From Balamuthia mandrillaris (Eukaryota), in contig JAVKOQ020000047.1 of NCBI GenBank assembly GCA_031835245.2, positions 62,001 to 126,000 on the forward strand: 64,000 bases of DNA, given 5' to 3'. The notes under the pieces were generated by a model that worked only from the letters and a program-made list of their open reading frames with translations, searched no databases and was not told the origin of the DNA. A program made the position numbers and the translations under genes. This document shows positions 1,812-61,138 of the stretch, piece by piece. Each line of letters begins with the position of its first letter. Position 1 is the first letter of the stretch.

Positions 1812-2447
1812 GTTGCCAAACCCCTCATCGATACATTCGCTGTGACGCCGTCGATGATTTCATCAACGGCGTCGTGAAAACCAGCTTGGCGGCGGGCAGA
1901 GGCACGACTGGATTCCAGATGAAGTTCCGTGGTCGGAAGGACAAGAGCCAGTCTCTCAGCATCCAAGCCAGGGAGTGGAATCACAACAGCTGCATCTGCC
2001 AACTCTTCTTCGGGGAGGCGCGAATCAAAGCGAGGGACAAGAACTACAAAGTTCCGTCGGACGTGCTCTATGCCGTTCGTCTGGTGAAAGACACTCGACT
2101 GGGCCATTACTGCCTCTGTGTGCCTCAGCCTTTGAAGCTCATGGGCGAGAGCCAAGCCCGTGAGCACCGAAGGAGAGAGGCAGGCATCATCGCCTTGGAT
2201 CCAGGAGTGCGCACATTCATGACCGCCTACAACGGCTGCGGGGAGGTCACCGAGTGGGGCAAAGAGGACATCAACGAGATAGGCAAGCTGTGCCACCGCC
2301 TGGATCGCATGCAGAGTAAGGGCACCAAGGGCAAATACTGACAACGGCGCCGTCTCCGAAGGGCCGCTGCTCGGCTTCCAGAGGATCCGCAACCTGGTGG
2401 GATAGGCGGTAAGGTTGCTTTGGTGCCGGAGGTGGTGGGTTATTTTT
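1812..2447 (+). pseudogene. Internally deleted Fanzor copy (matches ~9062-9641 joined to ~10050-10141)
   Basis: Near-identical to the intact copy (MKFRGRKDK...IIALDPGVRTFMT...). Premature TGA at 2339-2341, a 2-nt deletion, and a junction at ~2400 that jumps to the post-stop sequence taggcggtaaggttgctttggtgccgg; ends in gggttattttt. Confidence 0.92.
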
Positions 2448-2601
2448 AGTTTTATAATGGATAAACAATCTAAAAAGCCAAAAAATAAAAAAATGTTTGC
2501 AGTTTTTTCGACAATAAAAAGCAAACGTTCGGGGGGAAAGGAAAGGCCGCACTGGCCATTCCCATGCAGCAAAAAGGAGCCTAACCAAAGCGTTGTTGTT
2601 T

Positions 2602-3687
2602 TTACAGACAGGTGGTCTCCACGATCTTGGCACAAACAACATAAGGGTCGCAGTTAGAGGCAGGACGACGGTCCTCAAAGTAGCCCTTTCCTTCCTTGGC
2701 GGTGGAGGAGGGAATCCTGATGGAGGCTCCTCGGTCAGCAACGCCAGCCCTGAACTGGTCAATCCTGGCGGTCTCGTGTCTGCCAGTAAGGCGTCGCTCA
2801 TTGCCCTTGCCATAGGCAGCAATGTGCTCGATGTGTTTCTCGCTCAACTTCTGGATGGCCTCCTCGATGACCTTGTAGCCGCCCTCCTGCCTCATGGCCT
2901 CCGTGCTGTAGTTGGTGTGGCAACCGGCTCCGTTCCAGTCGCCAGGGATGGGCTTGGGGTCAAAGGACACGACAACGCGGAAGTACTCGCTCAATCGGTG
3001 GAGGATGTAGCGGGCCATCCAGAGGTGGTCACCGATGGAGATGCCCTCGCAGGGACCAACCTGGAACTCCCACTGGCCGGGCATGACCTCTCCGTTATCA
3101 CCGGCGATCTTGATGCCGGCGTAGAGGCAGGCGCGGTAGAGGGCCTCGTGGATGTCTCTGCCAAAGGCCTTGTCGGCACCGGCGCCGCAGTAGTAGGGTC
3201 CCTGTGGGCCAGGGAAGCCCTGCTCGGGCCAGCCAAAGGGACCGCCCCTCACGCTGAAGATGGTGTACTCCTGCTCTAAACCGAACCAGGGCTTGTGGTC
3301 CTTGGCCTTCTCCATGATCTCGTTGGCGTGGTAGCGGGTGTTGGTGGGGATGGGCTGATCATCCATGTCGTAGCAGTCGCACATCACCAAGATGTTCTTT
3401 CCTCTCCTGAAGGGGTCCCTGAAGATGGCGCGGGGCTTCAAATTGACCTCGCTCTTGTCGCCAGGGGCCTGGCCTGTGGAGGAACCGTCAAAGTTCCAGT
3501 GGGGGAGCTCCTCTGGGCTCTTGGGCTCAAATTCCAGTGTGCGAGACTTGCTGCGGACGTCCTCGCCGCTTCCGCCGATCCACACGTAGGTGGCTGTGAT
3601 CTTGTCCTCCGGCTGAGGGATGGCGTCCAAGAGACGGAAGAGCAAGTGGTGGTCCTGGTATCTGGAGCTAGCTTCAAAGAAGGCCAT
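2602..3687 (-). CDS. GLUL: Glutamine synthetase type II (intronless)
   Basis: [86 protein letters not shown]. Confidence 0.97.
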
Positions 3688-3825
3688 TTTGTGTGTGGTG
3701 TTTGGCGGAAAGAAAGAAAAGGAGCGTGAGGTGGTAGGGAGCAACAAACTGGCCCTTTGGGGGTGGTTGGTTGTTTTTGTTTCTTTTGAAGAAAGAAGGA
3801 AGAATGTCAGCTATCCTGCGGTCGG

Positions 3826-7031: not shown

Positions 7032-8315
7032 TCTCTTTTCTTTTAACAAAAAGCGCAGGACAACTAAAAAACAAGAGCGAGTAGTAACTCAGTATGCGTG
7101 CGTGGGTGAGCGAGCGAGCGAGCAAGTGACAAAGATGACTGACCTCCAAGTGATACGACTGAGTAGTACGAGGTGCTACTTCTCTGAGTCCGTGTGCGCA
7201 ACAAAACCTGTAGAAAAAAGCAGAGGAGGAGGAGGAGGAGGAGAGGGAGCAGCAGCAAGCAGCGGCTTTTTTGGGCGAAGCGGCCACCTTAACTTGGGAA
7301 ATTTCTCAGAACGCATGGCCAATTTTTGTCTCATTGTGGGAACACCAACCCATGCAACGGGCATCTACCGCCGATTTCAGGGATGGCGTTACACGCGACG
7401 GCAGCAATGGGGTGACGAATGGGGAAAAAAAAAACACAGCGGATGAAATGGACTGGCAGCGTTCGGCTCGGCACTTGCTTGCTCTCTCCGCTACTCCTCT
7501 GTGCCCTTCGACTCTTTTTTTTTCGCGGTGCGTTTTGGAGCCGTTAAAATATTTTTTTTATTCGGAATTTTTTTACTGCCATTTTGTAAGACGTGAGAAT
7601 GGACATGAGATATCCTAATTTCATGTCCCACAGGTGTGGTAGTCCCTTCGCTTGCTCTGCCTTCTCCCTTCCCCATGTTTTGTGTCCAGAAGAGAAGCGC
7701 TGCGTTACACCAGTGTTGCTTGTAAGGCGACGCAAAGATCATAAGATCTAAGGACAACAAAAAAGAAATCCGACATTCGTCTTTTGGGCCAATGAGCATT
7801 TTTCCCGCCAAAACAACCCTTCCTTCTCCCACGTCTTCGAAGGCAAAGTGGTGGGTTGGGGTGTGGGGTGGGGTGAATGGAATGGATGCTCATGCTGCTG
7901 CCGCCAATAAACTTTTGGTACTCGTCATTCGCCTTGACACTTTTCTGCTACTCGTTTTCTTTTCTTCTCTTCTTTTCTTGTCGTTTCTTTCTTTTCAAAA
8001 GTAAACACACAGACACACACATCCACGAAGCTCCACGCACCACCGTATTTCTCATTGCTACGCTTCTACTACACAAGGAGGAAACCAGCGGCGGAAGGAG
8101 GCAGAGGTGGAAACCGAAGCGGTTCAGCAGCAGGCAGGGGCACCGCTCCGATTGAAAAGGTAGCGTTCTTTTTTCTCTGCTCGCTCACTACATTTTTTGA
8201 TGATGGAAAAAAAATTTGTTACCAACCACTCACTAATGATTTCTTTTGTTTAAAAAAGAACAGCATCACGAACCTCTGTGCGCCTCTTCCACAACGCTGC
8301 TGGAAGCTGGCCTGA

Positions 8316-10052
8316 ATGGCAAGTTGCCCACAGTGCCGAAAAAAGTTTGCTACCTCTCACGGGTTGGCCGTTCACTTCGGTCGGGTCCACAAGGAAGGGG
8401 GTCGCACCACTACTTCTTCTACTCCCACTGCTACTCGGAAAAGAAGAGCGGAAAACGCCCCAGCGGCACCTCAGGCAAGGGCACAGAAGCGTGGAAGGCC
8501 GCAGGCTGCGCCCGCCCAGCCCTTTTGGAACCAGTTTTCCAGCGAAATCGGGAGAAGATTAATACGCCCAGAAGCCTTGTGCTTGGAAGAACCCTTTGCC
8601 TGTGGTTCAGGATGGTTCACCGCCTGCAAGCACATTCCTAACGGAGAAATGGTGTTGGAGGAGGAGGAGGAGGAGGAGAAGAAGGAGAAGGAGAAGAAGG
8701 AGGAAGAGGAAGAGGAGAAGGAGAAGGAGAAGGAAGAAGAGGAGAAAAACCAGAAAGGCTTGTTAGGCCTCATCGAGGGACTCGTTCCGTCTCGCCCAGC
8801 CGTACAGCTCACCAAAAAAGGCAAGAACGGAGAGGAGAAACCGGTAGTGGGGCGATTGGAGAAGATCCGCCTTTATCCGCGCTCGGAACAAAAGAAGACG
8901 CTGGCCAAGTGGTTCGGCACAGTACGATGGACCTACAACAAGGCCGTGGAGTTTCATCGTGAACATAAAGGAATGCCTCTTAAGGAGATGAAGGAACAAG
9001 TCAGGGAGAAATTCCTGAATAACGGCAATTTCAACGGAGAGGATAAGAGCCTTGCGTGGGTGTTGGAAACTCCTCGATACATTCGCAGTGACGCCGTCGA
9101 TGATTTCTTCAACGGCGTGAAAACCAGCTTGGCGGCGGGCAGGACTGGATTCAAGATGAAGTTCCGTGGTCGGAAGGACAAGAACCAGTCTCTCAGCATC
9201 CAAGCCAGGGAGTGGAACCACAGCAAGTCCATCCGCCAACTCTTCTTCGGGGAGGCGCGAATCAAAGCGAGGGACAAGAACTACAAAGTTCCGTCGGAGG
9301 TGCTCTATGCCGTTCGTCTGGTGAAAGACACTCGACTGGGCCATTACTACCTCTGTGTGCCTCAGCCTTTGAAGCTCATGGGCGAGAGCCAAGCCCGTGA
9401 GCACCGAAGGAGAGAGGCAGGCATCATCGCCTTGGATCCAGGAGTGCGCACATTCATGACCACCTACAACGGCTGCGGGGAGGTCACCGAGTGGGGCAAA
9501 GCGGACATCAACGAGATAGGCAAGCTGTGCCACCGCCTGGACCGCATGCAGAGTAAGGGCACCAAGGGCAACCACAGGCAACGGCGCCGTCTCCGAAGGG
9601 CCGCTGCTCGGCTTCGCCAGAGGATCCGCAACCTGGTGGATGACCTCCACAAGAAGCTCGTGTCTTGGTTGGTCAGGAACTTCTCTCTCATCCTTCTGCC
9701 AGAGTTCAGGAGCCAGCAGATGGTGCGGCGAGGCCACCGACGCATTGGCTCACGAACGGCCAGAGCCATGCTCACCTGGTCCCACTATCGCTTCAGGCAG
9801 AGGCTCCTCAACAAGGCCAAGCAATTTCCGTCCTGTACGGTCTGCCTCTGCGATGAGGAATACACCTCCAAGACCTGCGGCAAGTGCGGCCAAGTCCACC
9901 ACCAGTTGGGGGGAAACAAGACCTTTCGGTGCCCCCAACCCGAGTGTGGCTACCAGGCCGATCGAGATGCCAACGCCGCCCGAAACATCTTGATCCGCTT
10001 TTTTACGTTACAAGCACTTACCACCTCCTCCTCCTCTGTGAGGGGGCGGTAG
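8316..10052 (+). CDS. Fanzor2 / IS607-family TnpB-like RNA-guided endonuclease with N-terminal C2H2 zinc finger (578 aa, intronless)
   Basis: OrfB HTH KIRLYPRSEQKKTLAKWFGTVRWTYN; RuvC-I ALDPG (D374); ILLPEF with Pro at the canonical Glu site; DEEYTSKTCGKCG (E514); CPQPEC zinc ribbon; DRDANAARNIL (D551). N-terminal CPQC-X12-H-X4-H. Confidence 0.95.
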   Translation: MASCPQCRKKFATSHGLAVHFGRVHKEGGRTTTSSTPTATRKRRAENAPAAPQARAQKRGRPQAAPAQPFWNQFSSEIGRRLIRPEALCLEEPFACGSGWFTACKHIPNGEMVLEEEEEEEKKEKEKKEEEEEEKEKEKEEEEKNQKGLLGLIEGLVPSRPAVQLTKKGKNGEEKPVVGRLEKIRLYPRSEQKKTLAKWFGTVRWTYNKAVEFHREHKGMPLKEMKEQVREKFLNNGNFNGEDKSLAWVLETPRYIRSDAVDDFFNGVKTSLAAGRTGFKMKFRGRKDKNQSLSIQAREWNHSKSIRQLFFGEARIKARDKNYKVPSEVLYAVRLVKDTRLGHYYLCVPQPLKLMGESQAREHRRREAGIIALDPGVRTFMTTYNGCGEVTEWGKADINEIGKLCHRLDRMQSKGTKGNHRQRRRLRRAAARLRQRIRNLVDDLHKKLVSWLVRNFSLILLPEFRSQQMVRRGHRRIGSRTARAMLTWSHYRFRQRLLNKAKQFPSCTVCLCDEEYTSKTCGKCGQVHHQLGGNKTFRCPQPECGYQADRDANAARNILIRFFTLQALTTSSSSVRGR

Positions 10053-10165
10053 GCGGTAAGGTTGCTTTGGTGCCGGCACCGTTGCTTATAGCGAGTCGTA
10101 AGACAAGCCGTGATTAGGCACGCCGGAGGTGGGTTATTTTTTGTTTCTCTGTTTTTTTCCTCAGT
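10015..10165 (+). ncRNA. Putative omegaRNA (scaffold overlapping ORF 3' end and element right end, plus flank-derived guide)
   Basis: Expected position for TnpB/Fanzor omegaRNA. Pairings: ccacctcc(10021)/ggaggtgg(10125), gtgcc(10070)/ggcac(10117), gctt/aagc, and a gtc-GTAA-gac tetraloop. The end is shared with the second copy. Confidence 0.6.
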
Positions 10166-10341
10166 CAACTAATTTTGCTTTATTTTCGTTGTCCCATTGA
10201 TCGGCTTGATCTTGGCGCCATCTTAGCAATGGGGTTCTAGATACTTTAAAGGGGTCTTCAAGTATAGAGGCAGGGAGGCATGATGGGGCGACTGCGTTCG
10301 GTGAATGTATGCGTGGATGGAATTGGTTTTTTTTTAAACTG

Positions 10342-12595
10342 CTACTTTTTCCAGAGTTTAAGGAGACCATCGGTGGCCCAACTGGCCAGGATGTTGTGGC
10401 GGGGGTGGGCTGCTAAGCCCAGCAGGCTTTGGCTGTGGGCGTCCTGCAGGACGGTCTCCATCCGTCCTGTGGCGTACTCAAAGCAAAACACATTGCCCCC
10501 TTCGCTCCCTGCAAACACGTACTTGCCTATGCGTGTTATAGAGAGAGGAAGGTCAGCAATGTAAAAGCAAATAGAACGAGAGAAGCACTTACCCTTTCGC
10601 GACAGCACACATGAGACCAAGTCAGATTTGCCTACATTCGGTAAATCTCTCCTTGTTTCATTGTGAACAGCGCTCGATGCCGCCTCAGTAGCTCCCACGC
10701 CCTCTGCAGTGAAGGTCTTGAGGAGCCTGCCCTGCATATCCATGACAAAGCACTCCGAAGACTTGTTTCCCACCAGCAACAAGCTCCCCAGATTGGAGGA
10801 CGTAGAGGGGGATATCAAACAGATGGTGTGAATGCTTAGATTTTCCTTTGGCGAGAAAGTGTTGAGACAGTCCATGGTCTTGGTGTCCCAGACTTTGATG
10901 GTGCCGTCACTGCTGCCTGATATCACCTTGCTCTCATCCTCGCTGAAAACAGCAGTATTCACAAAGGAGGCATGGCCTCTGTAGGTCTTCAGCGTTTTAC
11001 CCGACTTAAGGCCATGCAACCTAGTTGTTTAACACAATCAACAAAATAAACCCAGGTGGCTCCATGGGTAACTGTACCGAATGGTATGATCATAGGAACT
11101 GCTTAATACTTTGGTGCTGTCGCTGGCGAAACAGACACATGTTACTCCACCGGAATGCGCACCGTCGAATCTTCGCAAGCATCTGCCACTTTTAAGTTCC
11201 CAAACCTACACTGAAACTTGTTAACGATAAGTGGAACCAACAACATGAAGGGCGCATACAGACCTTTACTTTACCGTCTTTGCTACCCGATGCAAGCAAT
11301 TGGTTATCTTTGCTGAACACTAAGCAAAAAACTGCCTCATTGTGCATCATCATTTTGTCCTTCGTGAAGAAATAACATATTAAACATGTTTTCAAGGGAG
11401 GAGAGAGGGAATAGTACCTCAGCTTGATATTTGAGATCCCGTCTTAGTTTTCCAGTAGTCCAGTCCCACACTTGAAAAGCAAGCAAGAGTAAGCAAACAG
11501 GCAACAACGAAGAACGTAACAGATGGTGAGCAAAAAAAAAAAACAATTACCCTCTATAAATCCATCCACACTTCCAGTAACAAGCGACTGCCCATCCAAA
11601 GAAAAACAAGCACATTCTGGATGAGATTGCTTCCCAAACTAATCTCCAAAGAAAAACAAAGGTAAGCACATCAAGACAAAAAAACTGGCCTAACCAACAA
11701 AAGGGTTACCTTTATGGTCTTCTTGAGCCTTTGGGGGCATTCGTCCTCTTCCTCAACAGGAGCAGCAGTAGTTCCTCTGAACAGGTCAATGTCAGTACCA
11801 GGGGGCAGCAGGCCCTGGTACTGCTGCCATTTGATGCCCTGTGAGATCAAGGCCATGAGCCTGGCGGGCGGCACCACCGCCACCTCCGGCTCCAAGGCCT
11901 TGGCAATGGCAGCCCGCCGTTTCTCCTTGGAGGAGCCATCAGGGTAGGCCTCCCTCGGCTCAAAGTGGGGCCTGGAGAGGAGTCGCTGCAGCCTGAGAAA
12001 GCGATCGCCGTCCGCTTGTCGTAAGGCAGCCATCGGCTTGCTCTGAGCCAACAGCATTCGAGCTGTGTCTATCTCTCTCAATTCCAGCAACTCCAAATAC
12101 ATCTTTCGTTTGCCCACATGGAATAGTTAGATCAGGGTGAGACGCAGGTAGAAAAGGCGTGCGTCTCAGAGTGTAACGTACTTGCTCGTAAATGTCAAAC
12201 AAAAGGTTGGGCGGCAACGACAACGTCTTCAGGTTGTGTAGCACAGCGTCCCAACGCCCATTCGTAACATCAGCCAAGAAGGCTTCCATATTGTCTACAG
12301 TGTTCAAGGAAAGCGCCGTCTCTTCCTAAACACAAACCTAAGTCTTAGCTAAGAGCCTTATTTTTCCAATCGTCGAGGGGAAAGAAGTTGTTCAACTTAC
12401 CTGCAACGTAGCCAGCGTTCGCTGCAACGAGTTCTCTTTGCAGAACTGCATGATCAGCCGGATGACACTGGCAGAAGAACGTAAGAAGAGCGGAAACCTC
12501 CAAGCCACATTTTTTATGTTTAAAAAAGAAATAAAAAAAAAAAACACGTACTCTCCAGCATCTACATTAATGGCGTTGGCGGGAGCATCGGCCAT
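10342..12595 (-). CDS. SMU1: WD40 repeat splicing factor SMU1, multi-exon
   Basis: [14 protein letters not shown] (LisH), LNTVDN...[79 protein letters not shown]. Confidence 0.95.
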
Positions 12596-12772: not shown

Positions 12773-15743
12773 TTAAATATTATCCATGATCTCTTCCATC
12801 TCTGTGAAAGAGTAGCCGGCGGAGTAGGTGCCACCGGCGTCGTCCTCCTCCAATCCATATTCGTACTCGCCCTCGCTGCTGTCCAGCACCAGCTCCTGCT
12901 CTCCCTCCACCTCCGGATTGTTAAACTGATACATCTCCCTCATTTTGTCTTTGCGTGCGTTTGCGACGGCTTCAGGAGACTCGCCTTCCCCCTCAAGTCC
13001 TCCTTCGCCTCGGCCATGGTTGCTGAAGCTCACCATCTTCTTCAATCGCTGCCCCAAGCTGCTTCGTCGAGGGGTAGTGGCTCCATCCAGTCTTGATCCT
13101 GCCGCTCCTCCTTCTCCGATATCCAACGAATGAGCCGAGTTGTGAGTGCCGCCGTAGACGCTCCCCTCATCAGAGTTAAGCCTTATGTCTCCCTTTTCTC
13201 TGTCTACAATGATGATCCCTCCAGCCCCATCTTTGCCTTCACCACCCCCATAACCGTCATGATCATCTAAGTCGCCGCTTCCAGTGGCAAGGTCGTCGCC
13301 CTCGCCGGCCAGTTGATCGCGATGAAACTCAGAGTCCATGGCTGATAGTTCCAAGCTGCTGTACTTGCGGGTGAGGCGGGACTGTTCTTCTTTGTAAGCC
13401 AGCGACTCCTCTAGGTCGTTGTAGGAGGATATGAGAGCCGAGCAATGGCGGATGCACTGATGAACGTCAGCACCGATGAAAGACTGTAACTCGTGCTGAT
13501 CGCCATACTCTCTTAGAAACTCTTTTACGTCCTTGTTGTGCTCCAGGTAGTTCAACAGCATGTCCGTGCTCTGTACAATGCCTTCCCACATTCGATTCGC
13601 TTTGTCGAAATACTCTGCTGCTGGGTATTGATCTTTCTCTTTTGCCTTTCGTTCTTGCTCTTCTTCTTCTTTCCGTTTTGTTTCTTCTTCCTCTTTTTCT
13701 TCCTCTTCCTCTTCCTCCTCTTCCTCTTCTTCGATGATTTTGACCAACTCCTGAATCTCAGCTTCCTCTTCGTCCGTTTTCTTGGTAGTAGGGCTATCTA
13801 GCGGCTGCGCTCTTGTTGTTTGCTGGTCGTTGGTACTGCTGCTGCTGTCCGTAGCAGCATCTATATTTGGGTTTTGTGATAGCTCCTTTTCTTCACGTTC
13901 TCTCTCCAGTTGCCGCAATCGCTCCTCCTTTTCTCTTTGCCGCCGTTCCGCTTTCCGCCGTTCTCGTTCCCTTTTTCTTTTGTCCTTGAGCCGCTCCTTC
14001 TGCAACTTGTGAGAGAGCATGTAGGCCAATACCCAACCTACCGTCACCAAGAATAGCCGCTTCTTCCACGCGTTTAGCCGTCTACATACAAATCTAACTA
14101 GAGCCAGCGGGTTGAGAGGATGGTATGGCGATAGGCTCTCCACGTCCCTCTCTACCGTCCACCAGTAGCTTACGATGCTTTGGGCTGTCCCCCAAAACTC
14201 GCCTATCCAGCCGAGCTGTTGTTGCAGGCTGTTTTTCATGTCATTATTGCTATCGTGAATGAGACTTCCAGCGATGCTCCCAACAACAGCAGCGCCAAGG
14301 CTCAGCCCTTTCGTGCCCATGTGTCTTTTGTTCGTAACGGTAGAAGAAGAGTTGTGGCCGAGAAAATAGCGAGAGAACATAGGCACACCCACAAATATCC
14401 AAAAGAAAGTGCCAACGATTAAACTGATCTCCCACCAGAAGAATATCTTGTGGAAGAGCCGCTTTATCTCCTTGTTGAGCCGTTTCAACTCGCCGGCGTT
14501 GGGGTTGGCCCCGCTCTCCGCTGTGCTTTTGTAGAGTTGTTGCTCGTGGTGGTACTTTTGACGTTGGTACCGGAATGTGAGCTGGTCCTTGCCCTCCAGC
14601 GCCGACTCCCTCAACAACGTGAGCGCTTCCTCTAAAAACCGCCCGTCCACCTTCTCCAAGATCTCCTGCACTATCCGCAGCGACTTTTCTGCCTTCTTTA
14701 GATACTTCCTGTTTGTTTGCAAACATGTCGCTTTGGTGTGAGAGAAGCAAGAAAGAGAAACCGAGGAAAGAGGTGAGGTGAAGAGAAGAGAAATAGAAGG
14801 TCATTGACGTAGGACGTACTTGACCACTTTGATAAGAGGAAAGATGTGTTTCTTCAAAATGAGTTCGTCCTCTGCGTCTTCCTCCTCTGCGGTCTCGCCT
14901 CTCTCCCACTTTTCGTTCGATTCAGTCTCGGAGCTCAACAGGTAAAAGGCAGCATCAAGGCCGCGCACAAACTCCTCCAGCGGGTGGGAGGTAAGCTCAA
15001 CGTAGCCTCCTTGCCACCGGATCATGTACACCGGCTGCTCGTCCTCGTCCTCCTCCTCGTCGCTGGTGAAATCCTCCTCCTCATCCTCCTCTCCCTCGCC
15101 AAGGTCCTGCCCCCTCCCGTGCAAACGGGCTTCGTGCTCCTCCTCCTGAAGGGAAGCATCGGCGTACCACATGATAGCGGGGGAGGGGGTCCGCTCCTCT
15201 GTCCTCTTCTTCTTCCAGATCCTCTGCTGCTGCTGTCACTTTTTCCGTGTTGCTTCCTATCGTGTCGTCTCGAAAACTCTTAGATTTTGTCACGACGACA
15301 CGACTCAACAGTGGGATTGAGAATGCAAGAGCGGATGGCTCTCTTGCAGTGGAGGCGGGCGGAGAGAACGGTCATCCTCTATTGGCAGAGGCCGCAAAGC
15401 AAAAGACGAGAAAAAGAAAGAGGGAGAGAAGGGGGATGAAGAAAGATAAGGAGTGGATAGCGTGGTAGGCATTTCCAAGGGCAGAAATTCTCCAGAAAGC
15501 GGAGGAGAGCCCCGCCATCTTTCTCGTAAATGTTGGATAACATGTTGAGCAAACAACAGCCATTTGTCCATTCGTCTTGTGTGGCAGGTCCTGGCGACGA
15601 TGGCCACCTCCTTCTTCGGCACCATAATGAGAGAGCAGCTCATGGTGAAGATATTTCAACTTAGGCATCATCATTTCTTTCTCAGGGTAAGCCCAGGGGC
15701 GGCAATGGGAGCCTGCAACGGTAGCGATTGCACCATTGGGCAC
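12773..15743 (-). CDS. Hypothetical membrane protein with coiled-coil/acidic regions, multi-exon (5' end uncertain)
   Basis: 649-aa ORF 12773-14722 with hydrophobic segments and charged helices; upstream ORF pieces separated by GT-AG introns. Confidence 0.55.
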
Positions 15744-17140: not shown

Positions 17141-19891
17141 ATGTGGATGGAAAAAACAGAGAAAAAGCAGGAAAGAAGGCCAGCCAGAAGCAGCAGCAAG
17201 CAACGTCATCCATCACCACCACCACCGCCGCCTGCTGCTGCTGGTGCTGGAGCTAGTGCCACGTGGACGCAGCAACCAGGGCAGCACCCCCGTAACGAAC
17301 CGCTACTCCACGCAAGGCAAGCAAAAGCCATGGGAAATTGCCACGGAGGCACAACAAGACGGAGACGGTCATGTTGGCCGACCCATGATCTTGGCGGAGG
17401 AATAGGAATGCTCCTCCGTAGGCGCTCCTCCTGCTGGAGGAGGCTGCTGCTGGTAGGGATTGCAGTGGCGCTGTTGGCTTTGTTGGATGGGAGCAGCGGG
17501 GCACAGGCTCGACGCAGCCGTTTTTGTGACTACCACCCAAACCACCCGGCTTGCCTCATCGAGAAGGAGCAAGAGGACGTTGCCGCTACTGACGAAGAAC
17601 AGGAGCCACAACCATGCCTCAATGACTTTCTGAAGGGGTCAGAAGCCGCTTCCACACAGTTGCGCCCTCCTCGGTCCTTTTTATTGTTGGCTGTAGCCAT
17701 TGGTTCGTTTGCTTTTTTCTCTCTCCTTTACTCACGTTTGCTTTCTCCCTTTAAACTGATATTTTGTGGTTGCATGAGGGCAGCAGTGTGCTTATCCACA
17801 GCGAGCATGTACATATGGTGGTTGAAGGCGACCAACGCTGACAACAACATTACTGCAGACGAGAACAACAATCAGAACCTCGCCACCACAGCAACGACAG
17901 AAACAGCAACATCTTTGACCTCAACACTACTTTCCGAGGCACCAACTTCTGCCATAACTTCCACAACAACCACCACTACCACAACAACAACTACTGTAAA
18001 GGGATCGCCAGACTTTGAAGAAGTTAACATCACTCAAGATAAGGAGGAACAGACTTTAACACATCCCGTTAGTGATAGTGATGATGCTGACGAATGTAAT
18101 AATGATAAGAAGGTTGGGGCGGAGGACGTGATGGCCAAGGGAAGAAAGGATACGAGCAGTGACGAGGAAGCAGAATCCCCTTCGTCCTCCGCTTCTTTTC
18201 TGAGAAGCCCACCCGGAGCTAGCAAATTTGCTGAAGACGAATGCATGCTGACGCAAGAATTGCGAGTTGTAAAGCGAAGGAGTGAGAGCGTGAGCGAAGG
18301 AGAGGCTAGCACTACAGCAGGCCAAGACATAGAGGAAGAGACATACGAAGAAAAGACAGTAGTAGTCTATGCTTCAACGAAATCACCACCATCGTCGACA
18401 AATACACAAGAACAGCGAAGAGCGAAACAAGAAAACATGGATGAACGGAGCCACGAACAGCGGATAGAAGGAGAAGACAACGATAGCCATTCAAGATTTC
18501 TTGTACCGGAAGAAACTGGTGATGGTCATCTCCACCATAACACAGATGAAATTATAAAAGACGTCATGAAGATAAGTACTGTTCTGGGCCTCAGCAAGGA
18601 AGAAGTACTCTCCCTTTCGCCCACTGAAAAGATCAAATACAGTCTGGAGTGCTACAAGCTGAAACAACATCAAAGCTTCTTGATGGAGCAACGACGAAAC
18701 AACAAAGCACAGGAAGACCTCTTAACGGTTCTCCACAAAAGCTCTCAAAGTCACCTGGAGGAGTCGCAGCGGCATCACGCTGTGGATGAGAGCATTCAGC
18801 TGCGTTCGAGCCAGGAGCTGATTCGCCACAATCGAAAGAAGGAGAAGTGGTCGCGGCAGCAGAGCCAGGAGATACGACGGCACCATCGCGTGAAGGAATC
18901 TCAGCTTCGTAGCGAGGGGCGGCAGCAACGCCTCCAACTGTTTGAAGCCCACCAACGGACTCTTCTGCTACGAACGACGTGGTTGGCTCTCTTTAGTTTC
19001 GCGTGTACATGGGCCTATTTTATGCACTTCGAGGTGGGACTTGCAGATGTTATCGCTCAACTGTTTGATCATTGGGACGTGCAACGCAACCACTTTTTGC
19101 GTTTGGTGGGAGCTTCAAGTTATGGATCCACTAGGTACAATGTTTTTTTCTTGCTGCTGTTATTACCTTCATTGTTTTTGTTTATATTTCTGTGATGTTC
19201 TGTCACGAACTTCTAAAATAGGAGTGGACGGTGTGGATGGATGTGGGCGATGGTGGGGATAACTGGAGAGGGAAGTTGCTTGGGTTTCATCTACGAGTTA
19301 TTGATGACCGTGCTATTTATACTGCTTACAGTCGTTGGTGCTGGGTTGCTGGTGTGGCGGTCCAAGATAGGCTATGTTGCTCTCTTCGTCAGCGCAATGG
19401 CGTTTGGGGTGAGCGTGCTACGAGCTGGTTTCTTCTTCTCCATCGTTCTGCTATTTCAATACTTCGTTCTGCAACTTTTGTGGCAGTGCATGAAAGCAGC
19501 TGGCCTCCATAAAAAAGATCCTGCTAAGCCACTCAACAAAAAGAGGAAAGCAAAGAAAAAATCAAAACAACGAACGAAAAAAGAAGCGGAAAGAACACAA
19601 GGCGTTACACCGGAGCAACTGGACGAGAAGGAAGCCTCTCGGAAGAAACCATCTAAAGGAAAGAACAAGAAAGAGAATGAAACCTCATTCAACAGACTGA
19701 TAGGCAAACGACGATGGATATTGAATGCATGGGAATGGCTGTGCTACCCAATGTTCGCGCTGGTGGCTGCGACTTTCGGATATTGGACGTTCCTCAGCGA
19801 CCCGCTCAACCCATTCTCGCTGGACAACTGGCTGCTCGACTCTTTTATTCTTCACTACCTCTCTTCCTTTCGTTGGCCTGTCTTCTCGTGA
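17141..19891 (+). CDS. Hypothetical multi-pass membrane protein (start may be 17329 or 17408; intron ~19135-19221)
   Basis: 684-aa and 216-aa ORFs with signal-like and TM segments, a Thr-rich region and coiled coil; GT..AG between them. Confidence 0.55.
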
Positions 19892-19928: not shown

Positions 19929-22900
19929 TTATTGCTGCTGTTGATAAAGTACAAGAGAAGTTTTGAAAGCGACGATGAGCTGCTTGAATGCCTGCCGCCA
20001 ACCGGCGTAAGCCTCTTGCATGGAGGCCTCTGCCTTGGCCTCGTTTGCTGCTGCCTCCTCCCCATTCAGCGCGTGCCATGAAGACATCAACCACAACGAC
20101 CTCTCCAAAAAGGTTTTGGTGGCCTGCATCACCACCACCTTTTGCTGCTGTACTTGAGGTCGTTGGTCTGTGGTGTGGTGAATTGTTAATATCACGTGAA
20201 AGAGGAGAGAGGAGAAAAGAAAGGAAGCAGAGGAGGAGGAATGATGGAAACCTTCGACCAGGATAGTGGCAGCCTTTTGGATGGTGGCCACGAGAGCAAA
20301 GACGCGTTGCCGGAAGGCATCAGTGTCGAACAACATTTCTTCCTCCTCGTCGTCATCAAACTTGCACATGGAAGATATTTGCGTTAAGCCCTGGTTCACT
20401 TTTTTGGTGTACTCCAAAAAGGTCTTCTTCTTCTTGCTGCGAGCGGTTAGCTGCGGTTGCTGTGCTGTTTGCTGAAGGGCGTCCAAGACTGGACCGGCTC
20501 CAATGATCAAGTTCTCCAGTGCTAGTAGCACTTTGGCTTTGTTGGCTGCCAGAGCGTCGGCGTTGCCGCTCTCTCTTTGAAGAAGGAAGGACCGAAGCTC
20601 GGTGACTTGCGTTCCAAATTCTTGGCATAAGCGCAAAATAGACTGGCAGGTTTCCTCTTGAAAGTGCATGCTTGCGGCTTCTCCAGCGAGCGACTTGCCA
20701 TCCATCAACAATTGCTTCGCTGTTCCCGTAAGAGCTGCAACGGTGTCCTTTATACTAGTGTCTGCGAAGGAGGATGAACGGGGAGCAAACAGAGAAGCAT
20801 CGAGAGATTGCAGTAATGATATCATGCGTCTTCTTCCTGCTCCCATGCTCTCATTTATAGAAGAAGAACTACTTGCATCACGCTGGGTTCGGGGGGTAGG
20901 AGGGGATAGAGGGGAGATAAGACGCGGTGAAGAAGGAGCAGATGTTGTTGATAGCGAACGAGAGTGAGTCATCAGTCGAGAGAGTGGAGTGCACGGTTGC
21001 CGGGAAGCCACCGGAGGAGGGCGAGGAGTAGAAGCAACAGCAGCAACAGCAGGGCCTGTGGTGCGGTTGGGGCTCGGCCCTCGATAAGAATGTGGACGTT
21101 GGTGATGTATTGTTGCATCCAGTACGGGAAGGTTTAATATTGGTACAGTTAGAGGAACAGAAGAAGTAGAAGAAGGACATGGTGATATGGATGGTGCGAC
21201 ACGAGGAGAGGCTAGTGGCGCGCTATGGTCTGTGATTTGCGGCGAGATGGAAGACGGGGTGGTTCCAGCTCTGCGTCGAATCATTTCTGGGGATTGGTCT
21301 TTGGATTCAATAGCAGCGGCGATGACTTTCGTTAGAGCGTGCAACTTCGCGGTAATGGTCATCCTTCCAGCTGAGTAACGGGAGGCAATGTCTTTGTTCA
21401 ACAGCTGTTGTTCCTGCGATGGAGGTGGTACCTGCCTTCGCTTCATGCAATGAATGAGCTCCTTGAACACATGAATGAAATGCACAGTAGCTTGGCCAAA
21501 CTCTTTGGCTGCGCCGCTGATTGCCTGCTTATGCGCTTCCGTGTGGGCGGCGTCGCGTAGCTCCTGAGCAGCCGCCACAACAGCCTTTGATGCCACCACG
21601 AAGCAACGCAATGTGTCATCCAGCATCATATTTTCGTCTTTCATTGTTGGATTCAACATTGCCGTCTCCCATCTAAAGTCCCATTCGGGCATCGACTGCT
21701 CCAGCTCTTTTGACTGCGCAACAAATTTGGCTGTTGTGTGTGCACAAGAGGAAGTAGAAACGGCAACAGCAGTTGATAGTGGAATTGAAAGAGGAGGTGG
21801 GGTTGCATTCTTAGAGTTGCTAGGAGAGGGGTGTCGATAGCTTTTTCCCTTCTTTGTTGGCTCTTTTGATGATAAAGTACTCTCTTGCTTGGTGGGTGTT
21901 AAAGGTTGTGGCGTGAACGAAGGCTTTGTGCCAGGTTTTTTGAAAGCCTGTTGTGAAGGAATCGGAACGGGCGTTGCTTTGTCGGTGCTGCCATTCGTGC
22001 CGATGGCTACTTTGGCTTCTGTTGCTGTTGGTGTAACTTTTGAGGCTGGTATTGCTGTTGCGCTGCGCTGTCTCAGTTCAGCTGACGCAACTGCACGGGG
22101 CGGAAGAGGCGGTGGTGATGTCGTTCCTACGTTGCTGGGAGTAGAGTCATCAGGTGTGTTCAGTGTGGCTATGGTGATTTGTAGTCGTGCTGCGGCTGAT
22201 GTGTCTTCTGTAGTTTCTTTGTTGGATGGATCAGAAGAGCGAGGAGTGTTTGGTTCAGAACCAGCAAAGACATCTACATCAGCCTCTTCCGGCGACATTC
22301 CAGCTTCTTCCCATAGATTAAATATAGTGCGTGGACCTTGTTGGTTGCGTGCTGCTCATTTATATATTAAAATTGGCGAGGAGAGGAGAGGAGAGGCGAG
22401 GAGAGGAGAGGAGAGGAGAGGAGAGGAGAGGAGAGGGAGAGGAGAGGAGAGGAGAGGAGAGGAGAGGAGAGGAGAGGAGAGAGGGAGAGGAGAGGAGAGG
22501 AGAGAGGAGAGGAGAGGAGAGGAGAGGAGAGGAGAGAGAGGAGAGGAGAGGAGAGGAGAGGAGAGGAGAGGAGAGGAGAGGAGAAACGGACCTACTCGCA
22601 GAGCCAATGTATCAAGTCTGAGGTCGCTCAAGTCTGTTGCCTCAGTTGGTGTATCGTCTGAGTCATCAGAGTCGTCAGAGTCCGTTCCTTTCTCTCCTGT
22701 TCCAGTCTTATCAGTGGTGGGGTCCGCATTTTCGTATCTCTTTTGCTGAAACTGGATCCCCATGTGTTGTTCCAGCATAAATCGAGTTCGTTCTTCCACT
22801 GTACCCCCCATAGCCATCATGGGTCCTAACGGTTCCAAGCCGGATGATCCTTTTCTCTCTTGTTGTGATCGTTTTAGTCGCTCTTGCTCCTCTCTTTCGA

Positions 22901-37295: not shown

Positions 37296-39095
37296 ATGTG
37301 CGAGTACGTGAAGGAGTTTGCTGGCACGGAGGACAAGGAGTACGATGCCGCGGTGACAGCTTTGATAGACCACGTCAAACGGGACAGCGGCGAGTTTCAA
37401 CCCTCTGAGCTGTATTCTCGGCTGGAGGACCGCAAGTTCGTGGACCAAAGCCAACGTCGCTCCCTCTTCAAGACCCTCGCCGACTCGGAGACCTTTCGCC
37501 TCTCTCAGCTCGTGGTGGACCGGCTGAACGCCGCCGACGAGCAGTTTTTCTACTTTCTGGTCAAGAACAACGTTACCCACATAAAGTATGGCCAAGGCGA
37601 CTTCTTCTCAGCGCATGAGGACTACTTGAGCCTGACCACCAACATGCTGGAGGAGTACACGCTCTTGCTCTGTGCGGACGCCGACTGCGAGGGCGGAGAG
37701 ACCATCTTCCACTTGAACAAGTTCTTCAAGCACGCCTCACGTGCCTCCGTGACTCCCAAGCAAGCAGTTCTCTTCCGCAAGGACATAACCCATGAGGGAG
37801 CCCCTATCACTCGCGGTTACAAAGAGATACTAACGTTCAACCTTTGGGCCACACGAAAGGATTTTGGCGGCATCGTCGCCGTCACTTTCGAGGACCACGA
37901 GGGCGTCTATGTCATGCCGAAAGCCAACGTCATGAACCTGCCGAACAACAGCCTGGCTGGTCACATTCGGTTCAACGGGTTGGAGGAGCGGGTCATTGTC
38001 AACATCCACTTTGGTAGCGGGGAGGCCTCCGCCTCTTCTTCTTCTTCTTCTTCTTGCCCTTCGCCACTCACCTTTGAGAGCTTCGAGATTGTTTACAGGG
38101 TCATCATGCGGATGTATATAGATATAGAGAAACTGGACTTGCAGTTGTTGGACTACTTCAACATCGAAGCAAAGAACGTGTTGTTGGACGTCAGCCCATC
38201 GCCTTCTGCGTTGGATGAGGATGCAGCAAAGCGGTGGTCTCCGTTGTATAACGCCAAAGCCACCAAATCGGCTTTGCTCTCCCTGCAGGAGGACATCCTG
38301 CTGACTCCGTCTCCCGAGGTCATGGAGTACATATGCCACACCTGCGTGGCACCCAACCACCTGCCCTACCTCCCATTCCTCACCGTTTGGATTGAGGGCT
38401 TCTACAGCTATGGTGGAGAAATGACTGGCACGCCTGCCCTCAAGTTCTCCATGGAGCCCGTCTTTGCTGCTTTCAGCCAGGCTAACAACCTGTGGAAGTT
38501 CGTTCCGTTGGTGACCAGGGGCACGCCCTTCTTCGATTCAACAGACAAACCCTTTTGGAGTGTTTTCACGAACCACGGGAAGGAGCAAGTCCGCCAACAG
38601 TTGACACAGCCTAGACCAGTTCGATTGGTGGAGCATTATTCAAACACGGGTACCAAAGAGGACGGCGCCCTGGTTTTGGAGAGTGATGATGGGTGGCACT
38701 CGGAAGGACCTCGCGTTCACTACGGTTTGGAGGTGGCTTGCCCTGAGCTGACCACCAAGACTATCCTTGACCTCCTCCTGCGGCCCCCAACTGATCAACG
38801 AGCGTTGGAAGGCGTGCTTATGGGTGGGCTCTTTCCAGGCACCTCCTTCGAAGGCCCGCACTACAACCTGGACTGCGAGGGCAAGTCCTACCTCACCGAC
38901 AAACACTTTGAGGCGGTAATCAACCACATCTCCGATGCTCAGTTCTTTGAGAAGCTTAAACAGAAGCTGGCCAAGAACGAAGTCTCCCTCAACTTTCCGC
39001 AACTGGGCCACTCTTTCGAACACAACTTTTGCAACGAGGATGTCTACGGACAGCTCTCGCTCTCCCTCATCTCTGGATTCGTTCGGATGGCCTAA
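37296..39095 (+). CDS. 2OG-Fe(II) oxygenase domain protein with possible BTB-like middle region (intronless)
   Basis: IKYGQGDFFSAHED (HxD), YTLLL, CEGGETIF, FRKDITHEG (distal His), GYKEIL. Confidence 0.75.
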   Translation: MCEYVKEFAGTEDKEYDAAVTALIDHVKRDSGEFQPSELYSRLEDRKFVDQSQRRSLFKTLADSETFRLSQLVVDRLNAADEQFFYFLVKNNVTHIKYGQGDFFSAHEDYLSLTTNMLEEYTLLLCADADCEGGETIFHLNKFFKHASRASVTPKQAVLFRKDITHEGAPITRGYKEILTFNLWATRKDFGGIVAVTFEDHEGVYVMPKANVMNLPNNSLAGHIRFNGLEERVIVNIHFGSGEASASSSSSSSCPSPLTFESFEIVYRVIMRMYIDIEKLDLQLLDYFNIEAKNVLLDVSPSPSALDEDAAKRWSPLYNAKATKSALLSLQEDILLTPSPEVMEYICHTCVAPNHLPYLPFLTVWIEGFYSYGGEMTGTPALKFSMEPVFAAFSQANNLWKFVPLVTRGTPFFDSTDKPFWSVFTNHGKEQVRQQLTQPRPVRLVEHYSNTGTKEDGALVLESDDGWHSEGPRVHYGLEVACPELTTKTILDLLLRPPTDQRALEGVLMGGLFPGTSFEGPHYNLDCEGKSYLTDKHFEAVINHISDAQFFEKLKQKLAKNEVSLNFPQLGHSFEHNFCNEDVYGQLSLSLISGFVRMA

Positions 39096-39510: not shown

Positions 39511-41517
39511 ATGAAGAGCCACTACGCGAAAGTAGCGGTCTTGGTACTGTTTTTGGGAGCGTTGGCGGTCTTCGCTCAGGAGACGGAAGAGGGGGAAGAA
39601 CAGAAGGCCAGCGGAACCGTCATCGGTATTGACTTGGGTACCACCTACTCTTGTGTGGGTGTTTGGAAGAACGGACGAGTGGAAATTATTCCCAACGACC
39701 AAGGTAACCGTATCACGCCCTCCTACGTGGCGTTCACCGAGAATGGCGACCGTCTTGTCGGAGAGGCTGCCAAGAACCAGGCCACCCTCAACCCCGAGAA
39801 CACCATCTTTGACGTCAAGCGTCTGATCGGAAGGAACTTTGATGATGCCTCTGTGCAGTCCGACATGAAGCTTCTCCCCTACAAGATTGTGAACAAGGGC
39901 GGCAAGCCTCACGTCTCCATTACCGTCAAGGGTGAGACCAAGGTCATGCCCCCTGAGGAGGTGTCTGCCATGATCCTCGCCAAGATGAAGGACGTTGCTG
40001 AGGCTTACCTCGGCAAGAAGGTGGCCGGTGCCGTAGTCACTGTCCCCGCCTATTTCAACGACGCTCAACGTCAGGCCACCAAGGACGCCGGCGCCATTGC
40101 TGGCTTGAAAGTGGAGCGTATCATCAACGAGCCTACCGCCGCTGCCATCGCCTATGGCCTCAACGAGGACAAGAACAAGGAGAAGACCATCCTTGTGTTC
40201 GACTTGGGAGGTGGTACCTTTGACGTCTCCCTCTTGAGCATTGACGGAGGAGTGTTCGAGGTCATTGCTACCAACGGAGACACCCACTTGGGAGGAGAGG
40301 ACTTTGATCAGAGGGTCATGGCCCACCTGCTCAAGCAGTTCAAGAAGAAGACAGGTCTGGACGCTGGCGGCGACAAGAGAGCCCTTCAGAAGCTCAGGCA
40401 GGAGGCCGAGAGAGCCAAGAGGACCCTCTCTACCGCCACCTCTGTCAACATTGAGATCGAGCCCTTCTTTGGCGGTGAGCCCCTTCAGGAGACCCTCACT
40501 CGCGCCCGTTTCGAGGACCTCAACTTGGACTTGTTCAAGAAGACGCTGAAGCCAGTGCAACAGGTCTTGGAGGACTCTGGACTTCAGAAGCACGAGATTG
40601 ATGAGGTGGTACTTGTGGGTGGTTCCACTCGTATTCCTAAGGTTCAACAGCTCCTCAAGGACTTCTTCAACGGCAAGGAGCCCAGCCGCGGAGTTAACCC
40701 CGATGAGGCTGTCGCCTATGGCGCTGCCGTGCAAGGAGGCATCCTCAGCGGCGAGGAGGACACTGAAGCAATCGTTGTGTTGGACGTGACCCCTCTTAGC
40801 GTTGGTATTGAGACCGTTGGCGGAGTGATGACCACCCTCGTGGAGCGTGGAACCCTCATCCCCACCAAGAAGAGCCAGACCTTCTCCACCTTCCAGGATA
40901 ACCAGGACCGTGTCCTCATCCAAGTTTTCGAGGGTGAGCGTGCCATGACCAAAGACAACCACTTGTTGGGCAAGTTTGAGTTGGCTGGAATCCCTCCTGC
41001 TCCTCGTGGTGTGCCCCAGATCGAGGTCACTTTTGAGATTGACGTCAACTCTATCCTCCATGTGTCTGCCGTGGAGAAGGCCTCTGGCAAGGTTGAGTCC
41101 ATCACCATCACCGCCGAGCAGGGCCGTCTCTCTGAGGAGGAGATCCAACGGCTAATCCGCGAGGCTGAGGAGGCCCGCGACGAGGACAAGAGGCTTAAGG
41201 ACACCGTCACCGCCCGTAACAACTTGGAGAGCTACGTCTACCAAGTGCGCAACACCATCAACGACGAGGAGAAGCTCGCCGGCAAGTTGGACGCCGACGA
41301 CTTGGAGACCATCCAGACCGCCGTGAGCGAAGCCATCGAGTGGTTGGATGATCACCTCCACGCCGACAAGGAGGACTACGAGGAGAAGCAGAAGGAAGTG
41401 GAGAATGTGATCAACCCCATCTTCACCAAGCTCTACCAAGGAGCTGGTGGTGCTGGTGGTTTCCCTGGAGGCCCTGGCGGCTTTGCTGAGGATATGCCCA
41501 GCCATGACGAACTGTAA
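39511..41517 (+). CDS. HSPA5: ER Hsp70 chaperone BiP/GRP78 (intronless)
   Basis: Signal peptide, [37 protein letters not shown]-terminal HDEL. Confidence 0.98.
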
Positions 41518-59607: not shown

Positions 59608-61002
59608 CTAGACCTGTTTTGTATCATCTACTCTAGTCTCTTCTTCCTCGTTTTCTTCTTGTTCTCCTGTGCAGTCACTTTGTTGTTGTTGCTGCCCTCT
59701 TTGGTTGCTTTCACTTCTTTCATGCCGTCTCCTCTCCTGCTTCGCCCACTCCAACAATTCCCCATGTTTCCGCTCAGTGGCCAACTTACAAACCATGCGA
59801 TAATTCCAAGGGCAACCATGCTCCCTCGCCCACTTCAACACTTTCAGATGCCCTCCAAACGCTGCTATGGTGCATGTGCCTTCGTCCCAAGGGCATCCTT
59901 CCTCGTGTAACCATTGCAATAATTCCAAGTTACCATTTCTCGCTGCTTGTGTGCAAACCTTGGGACCCCAAGGGCACGGTTGGTTCCGCTGTTCTGCTCC
60001 TCTCATCCATTTGAGCACATGCAGTTGTCCGTGAGCAGCAGCTGCAATGCTCGTGGCGAGACCCCAAGGACAGCCTTGCTCGCGTGCCCATTTCAGCATG
60101 TTTATCTGGCCGTGCACTGCCGCCCAACCACAGATCTCTAAAGTGGAAGTAGGGAGCGGACAGCCTTGCTCGTGTGCCCATTTCAACACGTTTAGCTGGC
60201 CACTCTTTGCCGCGATGGAGCAAGCCTTGTTCTTGTCCCAAGGACAGCCTTGAGCAACCATCCATTTCACCACGTGCAGCTGTCCTCCTCGGATCGCCTG
60301 CTCGCTGCTGTTTTGGCTCCAAGGACATCCATGCTCTCTCGCCCATTGCAGCACCTCCAAATGGCCGTTCTTGGCTGCATTTGTGCAGGTCCACTCGTTC
60401 CAGGGGCAACCCTGCTCTCTAACCCACTGCAATACCTCCAAGTGTCCTCCGCTTGCTGCTCCAGCGCTGGTTCGTTGGTTCCAAGGACATCCATGCTCCC
60501 TCGCCCATTGCAGCACTGCTAGGTGGCCGTTGAGGGCTGCCGCCCTGCAAGTCCACGCGTCCCAAGGACAACCCTGCGCACGAGCCCACTGCAACACCGC
60601 CAAGTGCCCGTTGCTGGCCGCTTGGTAAGTGGTCTCCCAGCTCCAAGGACATCCATGCTCTCTGGCCCATTGCAGCACCGCCAAATGGCCGTGCTTGGCG
60701 GCTTCTCTGCAGGTGTTGGGGCTCCAGCGACATCCCCGTTTCCGTGCCATCGCCAAGACCTGCACGTTGCCAAGAGAAGCAGCAAGGTCGCAGGTGGTTT
60801 GGTCCGTTTGGAAGCCGTTGAGGAGGGACCATTGGAACAAGGCCGGCGAGCTGCAGGCCACCCTCGCGCTCAACCTGTGCCTCCGCTCCGCGGGACAACA
60901 GGCAAACCAACGGCGACAGGTCCTGGCAGCCACCGCCACCGTTCCTGGCGGAAGAAAGTCCAGCACGTAGGCTATCACCTCTGCTGGCAGCAGCTCCTCC
61001 AT
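59608..61002 (-). CDS. F-box + ankyrin-like (LQWAREHGCPW) repeat protein (intronless)
   Basis: LLPAEVIAYVLDFLP...ARTCRRW (F-box); about 13 repeats of the type AA..GHL.VLQWARE.GCPW. Met at 61002 is the likely start. Confidence 0.85.
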   Translation of the reverse strand: MEELLPAEVIAYVLDFLPPGTVAVAARTCRRWFACCPAERRHRLSARVACSSPALFQWSLLNGFQTDQTTCDLAASLGNVQVLAMARKRGCRWSPNTCREAAKHGHLAVLQWAREHGCPWSWETTYQAASNGHLAVLQWARAQGCPWDAWTCRAAALNGHLAVLQWAREHGCPWNQRTSAGAASGGHLEVLQWVREQGCPWNEWTCTNAAKNGHLEVLQWAREHGCPWSQNSSEQAIRGGQLHVVKWMVAQGCPWDKNKACSIAAKSGQLNVLKWAHEQGCPLPTSTLEICGWAAVHGQINMLKWAREQGCPWGLATSIAAAAHGQLHVLKWMRGAEQRNQPCPWGPKVCTQAARNGNLELLQWLHEEGCPWDEGTCTIAAFGGHLKVLKWAREHGCPWNYRMVCKLATERKHGELLEWAKQERRRHERSESNQRGQQQQQSDCTGEQEENEEEETRVDDTKQV

Positions 61003-61138
61003 GCTTCTTGTCTTCGCTCTGTTTTTTCTCACGTTCTTCTTTGGTTTCGTTCTCATGTCGTCATGAAATATTATCATGACGACGTGAGGTTTTGAATCAA
61101 CATTAAAGAAAGAAGTTACTCGCCGATCCGAAGAAGAG

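Follow-up and report, generated by a model that had tools for sequence, protein, structure and literature searches.

An intact Fanzor2 gene

The window, as the whole stretch of 64,000 nucleotides of Balamuthia mandrillaris DNA is called here, carries a Fanzor2 gene on its plus strand. The frame and its catalytic elements are arranged as follows.

8316..10052, plus strand: Fanzor2 open reading frame, 578 aa in one unbroken frame
8862..8954, plus strand: HTH_OrfB_IS605 domain, residues 183-213 (Pfam match, E 6e-10)
9435..9437, plus strand: RuvC-I residue D374 in ALDPG (D374-P375-G376), placed by the alignment with PDB 9B0L, a residue check and a 102-row alignment
9699..9701, plus strand: P462 at the canonical RuvC-II Glu position (9B0L and 102-row alignments)
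9855..9857, plus strand: alternative catalytic residue E514 in DEEYTSKTC, just before the zinc finger (9B0L and 102-row alignments)
9876..9947, plus strand: C4 zinc ribbon C521, C524, C539 and C544 (Pfam, residue check)
9966..9968, plus strand: RuvC-III residue D551 in DRDANAARN, with R550-D551 following the zinc ribbon (9B0L and 102-row alignments)

Beyond the helix-turn-helix, Pfam matches a Cas12f1-like_TNB domain at residues 490-558 (E 2e-16). The NCBIfam model guided_TnpB scores 125.7 bits against a cut-off of 100 on the 578-aa ORF, while IS200_TnpB and IS607_TnpB both fall below their cut-offs. The mimivirus Fanzor2 ApmFz2 (9B0L) heads the 16 PDB sequence matches (E 2.7e-27), and its D324, G416, E467 and D501 align with D374, P462, E514 and D551, respectively. 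D324, E467 and D501 constitute the ApmFz2 catalytic triad (PMC11832414), and G416 occupies the canonical RuvC-II position (bioRxiv 10.64898/2026.06.23.733943). Across the 102-row alignment, position 462 is Pro in 92 rows and Glu in 9, and position 514 is Glu in 90. The protein therefore combines the DPG motif, a Pro at the canonical RuvC-II site with an alternative Glu, and a C4 ribbon followed by RD, all of them Fanzor marks; DPG with the alternative Glu is described as the fingerprint of Fanzors and pro-Fanzors in PMC10711439.

The AlphaFold2 (AF2) model of the core has a pLDDT of 91.4, and its best fold match is again 9B0L (E 3e-17, TM 0.73), compared with a TM of only 0.34 for the Fanzor1 structure 8GKH. 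The compact TnpB-like fold with an OrfB helix-turn-helix, nearer to ApmFz2 than to Fanzor1, is that of a Fanzor2. The Fanzor1 traits of enlarged REC/WED insertions and pseudoknot loss are absent: the core is compact, a pseudoknot is predicted and the TM to Fanzor1 is low. The original prediction had read an uninterrupted 578-aa frame here, with the OrfB helix-turn-helix, D374, P462, E514, four cysteines and D551; the frame is present and every residue is where it was placed. The C2H2-like motif at residues 4-25, the second copy in the window and the predicted omegaRNA structure were missing from that prediction. Its assignment to Fanzor2 with an intact triad is upheld by Pfam, NCBIfam, the 9B0L alignment and the fold match. 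By homology, the product is likely a catalytically competent, programmable nuclease.

The N-terminal region

Ahead of the core, four segments follow one another.

8325..8390, plus strand: C2H2-like zinc-finger motif (C4, C7, F11, L17, H20 and H25; residues 4-25), a sub-threshold Pfam match
8436..8501, plus strand: basic patches RKRR (41-44) and KRGRP (58-62), a putative nuclear localization signal (NLS) read from the sequence
8520..8636, plus strand: PFW...W segment, likely a RuvC-R-like part of the Fanzor2 N-terminal domain (alignment of relatives, AF2)
8655..8748, plus strand: Glu/Lys low-complexity tract, whose length differs among copies

The zf-C2H2_4 match reaches E 0.0019 and 19.2 bits, under the Pfam cut-off of 27, so a zinc finger is proposed at the level of a sub-threshold motif. 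Residues 1-64 have a pLDDT below 50 and the motif is unfolded in the AF2 model, where it occurs in only 3 of the 56 rows. It recurs in 3 of the 130 proteins compared, all three from the Balamuthia family, and a search of 128 candidates matched Balamuthia-labelled proteins only. Five of the 12 annotated copies have gene models that start at upstream exons and skip these cysteines. The sole co-mention of Fanzor and C2H2 found in the literature is in a red-alga genome paper.

The basic patches, which may resemble an AT-hook, are likely to serve as an NLS. An N-terminal NLS is frequent among Fanzors (PMC10530073). All nine relatives aligned have N-termini homologous to the PFW...W segment, in which W71 and W100 are invariant, and residues 71-110 are folded in the AF2 model (pLDDT 68-90 in blocks of ten residues). 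The likeness to giant-virus Fanzor2 N-termini suggested in the original prediction agrees with this alignment.

Phylogenetic position and nuclear context

Trees were built with FastTree from 100 rows, after 33 had been thinned out and two poorly aligned ones dropped, and with IQ-TREE in quick mode from 46 rows. In both, with rows that do not include named Fanzor1 or Fanzor2 proteins, the window protein lies inside the DPG/alternative-Glu clade with support of 98-100. The best trees group it with Lipomyces, EukProt and metagenome proteins, apart from the cyanobacterial pro-Fanzors, on enclosing branches of 90-94, unstarred; an AU test of a clade with the cyanobacterial proteins gives no rejection (p 0.21). 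A phylogeny with Fanzors and TnpBs had been proposed as a check, and it supports the wider clade, leaving the separation from pro-Fanzors at these lower values. A single-sequence scan of viral contigs yielded six stretches and zero confirmed relatives, whereas an alignment-based scan did recover relatives.

The cyanobacterial pro-Fanzors share the fingerprint at 33-38% identity, and the AU result allows kinship with them; both would suit a bacterial IS607 TnpB sitting on a contaminant or chimeric contig. Against this origin stand the closest homologues. A search of 7986 candidates gave 337 matches, the three best carrying the label Balamuthia mandrillaris. All 10 members of the best match's cluster bear it as well, and two more bring the total to 12 proteins, 72-98% identical to the window protein and spread over many different contigs. 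The exact window protein is absent from the protein collection searched. The WD40 gene adjoining the ORF is spliced, with its intron visible in reads, and a contig of run X1 spans from this gene to 10196 with zero mismatches. Upstream, a class II tRNA synthetase gene, presumably glycyl by its motif, is split by introns. Spliced eukaryotic neighbours together with Balamuthia-labelled paralogues make contamination very unlikely, and a bacterial source is a scarcely credible reading of the locus. A contaminant or chimeric contig, named in the original prediction as what would overturn it, is largely ruled out by the paralogues, spliced neighbours and X1 contig, and the amoeba-like nuclear setting it described is confirmed; the gene resides in a eukaryotic genome, as a Fanzor does.

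Elsewhere in the window, a glutamine synthetase gene (2602-3747, minus strand) is one open frame amid intron-rich neighbours. An F-box and ankyrin-repeat ORF (Pfam) lies at 59608-61182 on the minus strand, an architecture common in amoebae and their giant viruses. A 599-aa ORF with Pfam matches to Pox_C4_C10 and 2OG-Fe(II) oxygenase (37296-39095, plus strand) stands beside an Hsp70 gene (39511-41517). Three further long unbroken ORFs, 12773-14722 (minus), 17141-19195 (plus) and 19929-22298 (minus), encode 649, 684 and 789 aa and match no Pfam family above cut-off, in a genome otherwise intron-rich. Of the element's words, a small share (0.19) occurs in the soil metagenome run X4, and shares of 0.34 and 0.20 occur in two runs of a second organism, these being word shares alone.

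Copies, transposase and element ends

Relics of a second copy and a shared upstream region accompany the gene.

1824..2452, plus strand: decayed second copy, 95% identical over 579 bp, with a stop and a frameshift; RuvC-II/III and part of the scaffold are deleted
774-839, within the window: further fragment of the decayed copy
7792..8315, plus strand: upstream region common to other annotated copies (minimum leftward extent), with two putative GT-AG introns and no TnpA

The two pieces of the decayed copy are separated by about 980 bp of unrelated AT-rich sequence, and its scaffold deletion fuses both GCCGG motifs of the pseudoknot, a microhomology. As annotated, none of the 12 copies has a complete catalytic core. 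Four of them break at the homopolymer runs 9908-9913 and 9932-9936; as no indel appears there in the RNA reads, assembly error may account for some of the apparent decay.

Six-frame translation of the window contains no serine recombinase TnpA (best E 0.15), and the frames overlapping the PFW segment hold no TnpA remnant; the autonomous IS607 arrangement, with TnpA upstream of or overlapping the nuclease gene, is thus lacking within the window. Among relatives, a same-strand serine-recombinase motif occurs at 45/80 viral, 44/80 metagenome and 60/80 genome loci. TnpA lies upstream in 35 of 45 hand-picked relatives; in 26 of these 35 the PFW segment is overprinted on TnpA in a different frame, mostly 136-145 nt past the recombinase motif. 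The window retains the PFW segment, and the C2H2-like motif sits where TnpA would be.

Neither terminal inverted repeats nor a target-site duplication was found in the window, within which the element is traced leftward at least to 7792. The pair TAAGACG/CGTCTTA was considered as a terminal repeat and set aside, since its 5 occurrences in the window are close to the chance expectation (mean 3.9). For the TAM, the left ends of relatives give a partial prediction: a G precedes the element, the full dinucleotide not always matching.

Predicted omegaRNA scaffold and guide

Downstream, the last codons of the ORF run into a predicted RNA.

10012..10128, plus strand: predicted omegaRNA scaffold of about 117 nt, with a long stem and a pseudoknot; AG end at 10128, 5' end approximate
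10129..10148, plus strand: predicted guide, the first ~20 nt beyond the scaffold, placed from the scaffold end
10129..10226, strand unspecified: 3' tail seemingly common to some copies, the last ~55 bp (10171-10226) being dispersed and repeat-like

The long stem (10012-10067) overlaps the final ORF codons. Next comes a hairpin at 10069-10080; its loop, CCGGC, would pair with the GCCGG of 10122-10126, directly before AG. In 240 related loci collected, the region downstream of the ORF has a common layout: an initial stem, a hairpin of 3 bp with a loop of 5-7 nt, more stems, the complement of the loop and a terminal N-G. Applied to 220 sequences, namely 219 loci and the window (21 loci lacking the C-terminus or enough flank were left out), a descriptor of the pseudoknot finds 5 or more Watson-Crick pairs in 113, against 24 of 660 shuffles, with a single match in the window. 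Since the descriptor itself requires pairing, the independent check is the copy boundary: shared sequence ends 0-3 nt past N-G in 14 of 20 copy pairs of relatives, with the motif identified by eye in two of the 14, while five pairs continue through shared flanks and one is cut by a contig end. Shuffles of the window match in 13 of 500 cases, which is not a blind p value because the candidate had been seen by eye before the descriptor was written. A hairpin-flank profile built from 35 relatives alone ranks the window site first, weakly (2.6 bits against 6-17), and 10008-10128 folds better than shuffles (z -2.9). Rfam returns seven weak matches on 9800-10400, all far under gathering scores.

A pseudoknot is required by an IS607 TnpB and predicted in Fanzor2s (PMC10711439). 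Such a pseudoknotted 3' omegaRNA, typical of Fanzor2, is present here by prediction, with a descriptor that was not blind. The CCGGC/GCCGG pair is, as predicted, the family pseudoknot in a sequence changed on both strands, which is new here. Two other approaches to the motif were abandoned: a looser descriptor was noisy and chose the wrong partner in the window, and in a MAFFT alignment the right-end motif came apart into two separate blocks. Support for a scaffold end at 10128 comes from RNA reads of other copies, three of which leave the window sequence at 10128 and four at 10130. The position 10226, also tried as scaffold end, was dropped: it has no pseudoknot partner, and 10128 fits.

The sequence beyond 10128 bears on a different reading, in which the Fanzor core lies inside a larger mobile unit ending near 10226, so that the guide is internal and the same in many copies and the enzyme is a fixed-target nuclease. 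This would be a Fanzor2*-like capture or early domestication, perhaps with help from the added zinc finger. In its favour, 20 of the 22 nt at 10125-10146 are matched in the decayed copy, whose 3-nt insertion at 10127 is found again in an X1 contig; in three X10 reads, ORF position 9667 is fused to 10209-10219 with another flank; and beyond 10219-10226 several different flanks are seen. Against it, the X1 contig could derive from the decayed copy, which in turn could have arisen by local duplication, and 10171-10226, found next to unrelated left flanks as well, may be a repeat of its own. Moreover, other copies end at the scaffold, as the loose ends at 10128 and 10130 indicate, the sole candidate terminal inverted repeat is the chance-frequency pair described above, and the window has no second target-like guide site. 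The larger unit is accordingly held to be unlikely. The predicted guide begins with 12 nt that the decayed copy has as well, which is unexpected under a variable-guide model, Fanzor guides being described as not conserved among copies (review PMC13565253), and a fixed-guide subfamily of copies is possible.

The ~55 bp at 10171-10226, ending in GGCGCC(R)TCTTAG, have several different left and right flanks in reads and contigs and may represent a dispersed repeat or else the terminus of a different mobile element. On the minus strand, the transcript of the WD40 gene extends into them.

Transcription of the family

The interval 8760-10700 is covered by 170, 187 and 112 reads, respectively, from three raw RNA runs, which may derive from other strains and were sampled at 3-5% each. 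The two mate directions occur at similar levels and do not reveal the strand of the transcript. Read depth drops past ~10125 in all three runs. The window's base is carried by no read at 8856, 9044, 9184 and 9686; transcription is therefore seen for the family and not for the exact window copy. Of the RNA-seq check proposed for expression, the family-level part is positive and the part specific to this copy is negative at these four sites. No run containing the stretch is catalogued as RNA, a blank that carries no evidential weight.

Eighty-three differences were found among the reads and 40 of them listed, 38 within the ORF; 18 of the 38 are synonymous against a synonymous-site fraction of 0.23, a count that mixes copies and strains and handles codons change by change. 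In the part from 9290 onward, synonymous changes make up 10 of 13 ORF differences. The excess is suggestive of purifying selection.

These data weigh on the reading of the gene as a dormant relic, with a frame that is open because the family is young, unexpressed or without a working RNA, in a family decaying after transposase loss. The missing TnpA in the window, the decayed neighbouring copy, the numerous reads and gene models of copies with deletions or rearrangements, and the four alleles absent from RNA reads would all agree with it. On the other side, the synonymous excess and the intactness of the catalytic residues, zinc residues and predicted pseudoknot speak for function; the homopolymer breaks may be assembly error and the RNA runs may come from other strains. 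A relic is judged improbable, slightly more so than the larger unit.

Comparison with known Fanzors

ApmFz2 resembles the window protein in triad geometry, in the order HTH/REC-WED-RuvC-ZnF, in its N-terminal extension and in a pseudoknotted RNA, which is predicted here. Identity is about 22%, the window protein has P for G at the canonical Glu site, and it carries the C2H2-like motif and Glu/Lys tract in addition. ApmFz2 has an omegaRNA of 247 nt and a GGG TAM and belongs to an IS607 element that encodes TnpA, whereas the window has no TnpA and a predicted scaffold of ~117 nt. The cyanobacterial pro-Fanzor IS607 TnpBs share DPG with the alternative Glu, the pseudoknot hairpin and the N-G end; they differ in forming a separate clade in the best trees, in having a TnpA motif at 60 of 80 loci and in pseudoknot cores such as GATAC, GATTC or GACGG in place of CCGGC.

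Fanzor2 elements of Acanthamoeba castellanii were already listed in 2013. ACa-1 and ACa-2 likewise lie in an amoebozoan nuclear genome and, unlike the window element, carry an IS607 serine recombinase, as compared by the description in PMC3627910. NlovFz2 of Naegleria lovaniensis and MmeFz2 of Mercenaria mercenaria are Fanzor2s of cellular organisms whose N-terminus is disordered and which lack a clear link to a transposase (PMC10432273), a likeness by description and not by sequence; both are shown there to cut DNA, with TAMs CCG and TAG. MmeFz2 elements have terminal inverted repeats and target-site duplications (PMC10711439), none of which was found in the window. Naegleria, clam and mimivirus Fanzor2s have been assayed (PMC10432273 and PMC10530073). 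With amoeba Fanzor2s known before from Acanthamoeba and Naegleria, the Balamuthia protein is a further, mostly ordinary Fanzor2. The original description of the family as uncharacterised holds for the Balamuthia-type element; for Fanzor2, with several assayed members and a structure, it fails. No joint mention of Balamuthia and Fanzor was found in the literature, and Balamuthia is unnamed in the supplements of the Fanzor papers checked (one scanned file excluded), whose tables may give accessions only.

Proposed function and significance

The best reading of the locus, held as probable, is an intact Fanzor2 gene within a multicopy, IS607-derived element without TnpA in the window, encoding a likely RNA-guided double-strand DNA endonuclease. 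The protein would enter the nucleus via its basic N-terminus and bind RNA from the element's own 3' end, comprising the pseudoknotted scaffold to 10128 and ~15-20 nt of flanking sequence that serves as guide. The target of this complex would be the empty insertion site, cleaved where a short G-ending TAM adjoins the guide match. The element would be restored or copied as the break is repaired with the occupied chromatid or homologue as template, a restorative or homing-type maintenance of the kind modelled in a review (PMC13565253). To reach new sites, the element would depend on a transposase acting in trans.

A more speculative view, to which a low probability is assigned, is that this Fanzor2 is caught in mid-domestication: the IS607 transposase lost, a C2H2 finger gained, and a sub-lineage carrying ~100 bp of former flank with one hard-wired guide and target.

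The protein is divergent (~22% identity with ApmFz2) and natively intact, and its scaffold is predicted to be short (~117 nt), which makes it a possible compact editor with its own TAM; the predicted pseudoknot, rewritten on both strands, provides a natural case of covariation. If the frozen-guide reading is true, the locus would represent a rare eukaryotic guide fixed by element growth. In conclusion, a multicopy, transcribed family without an adjacent transposase bears on what Fanzors do in their hosts.
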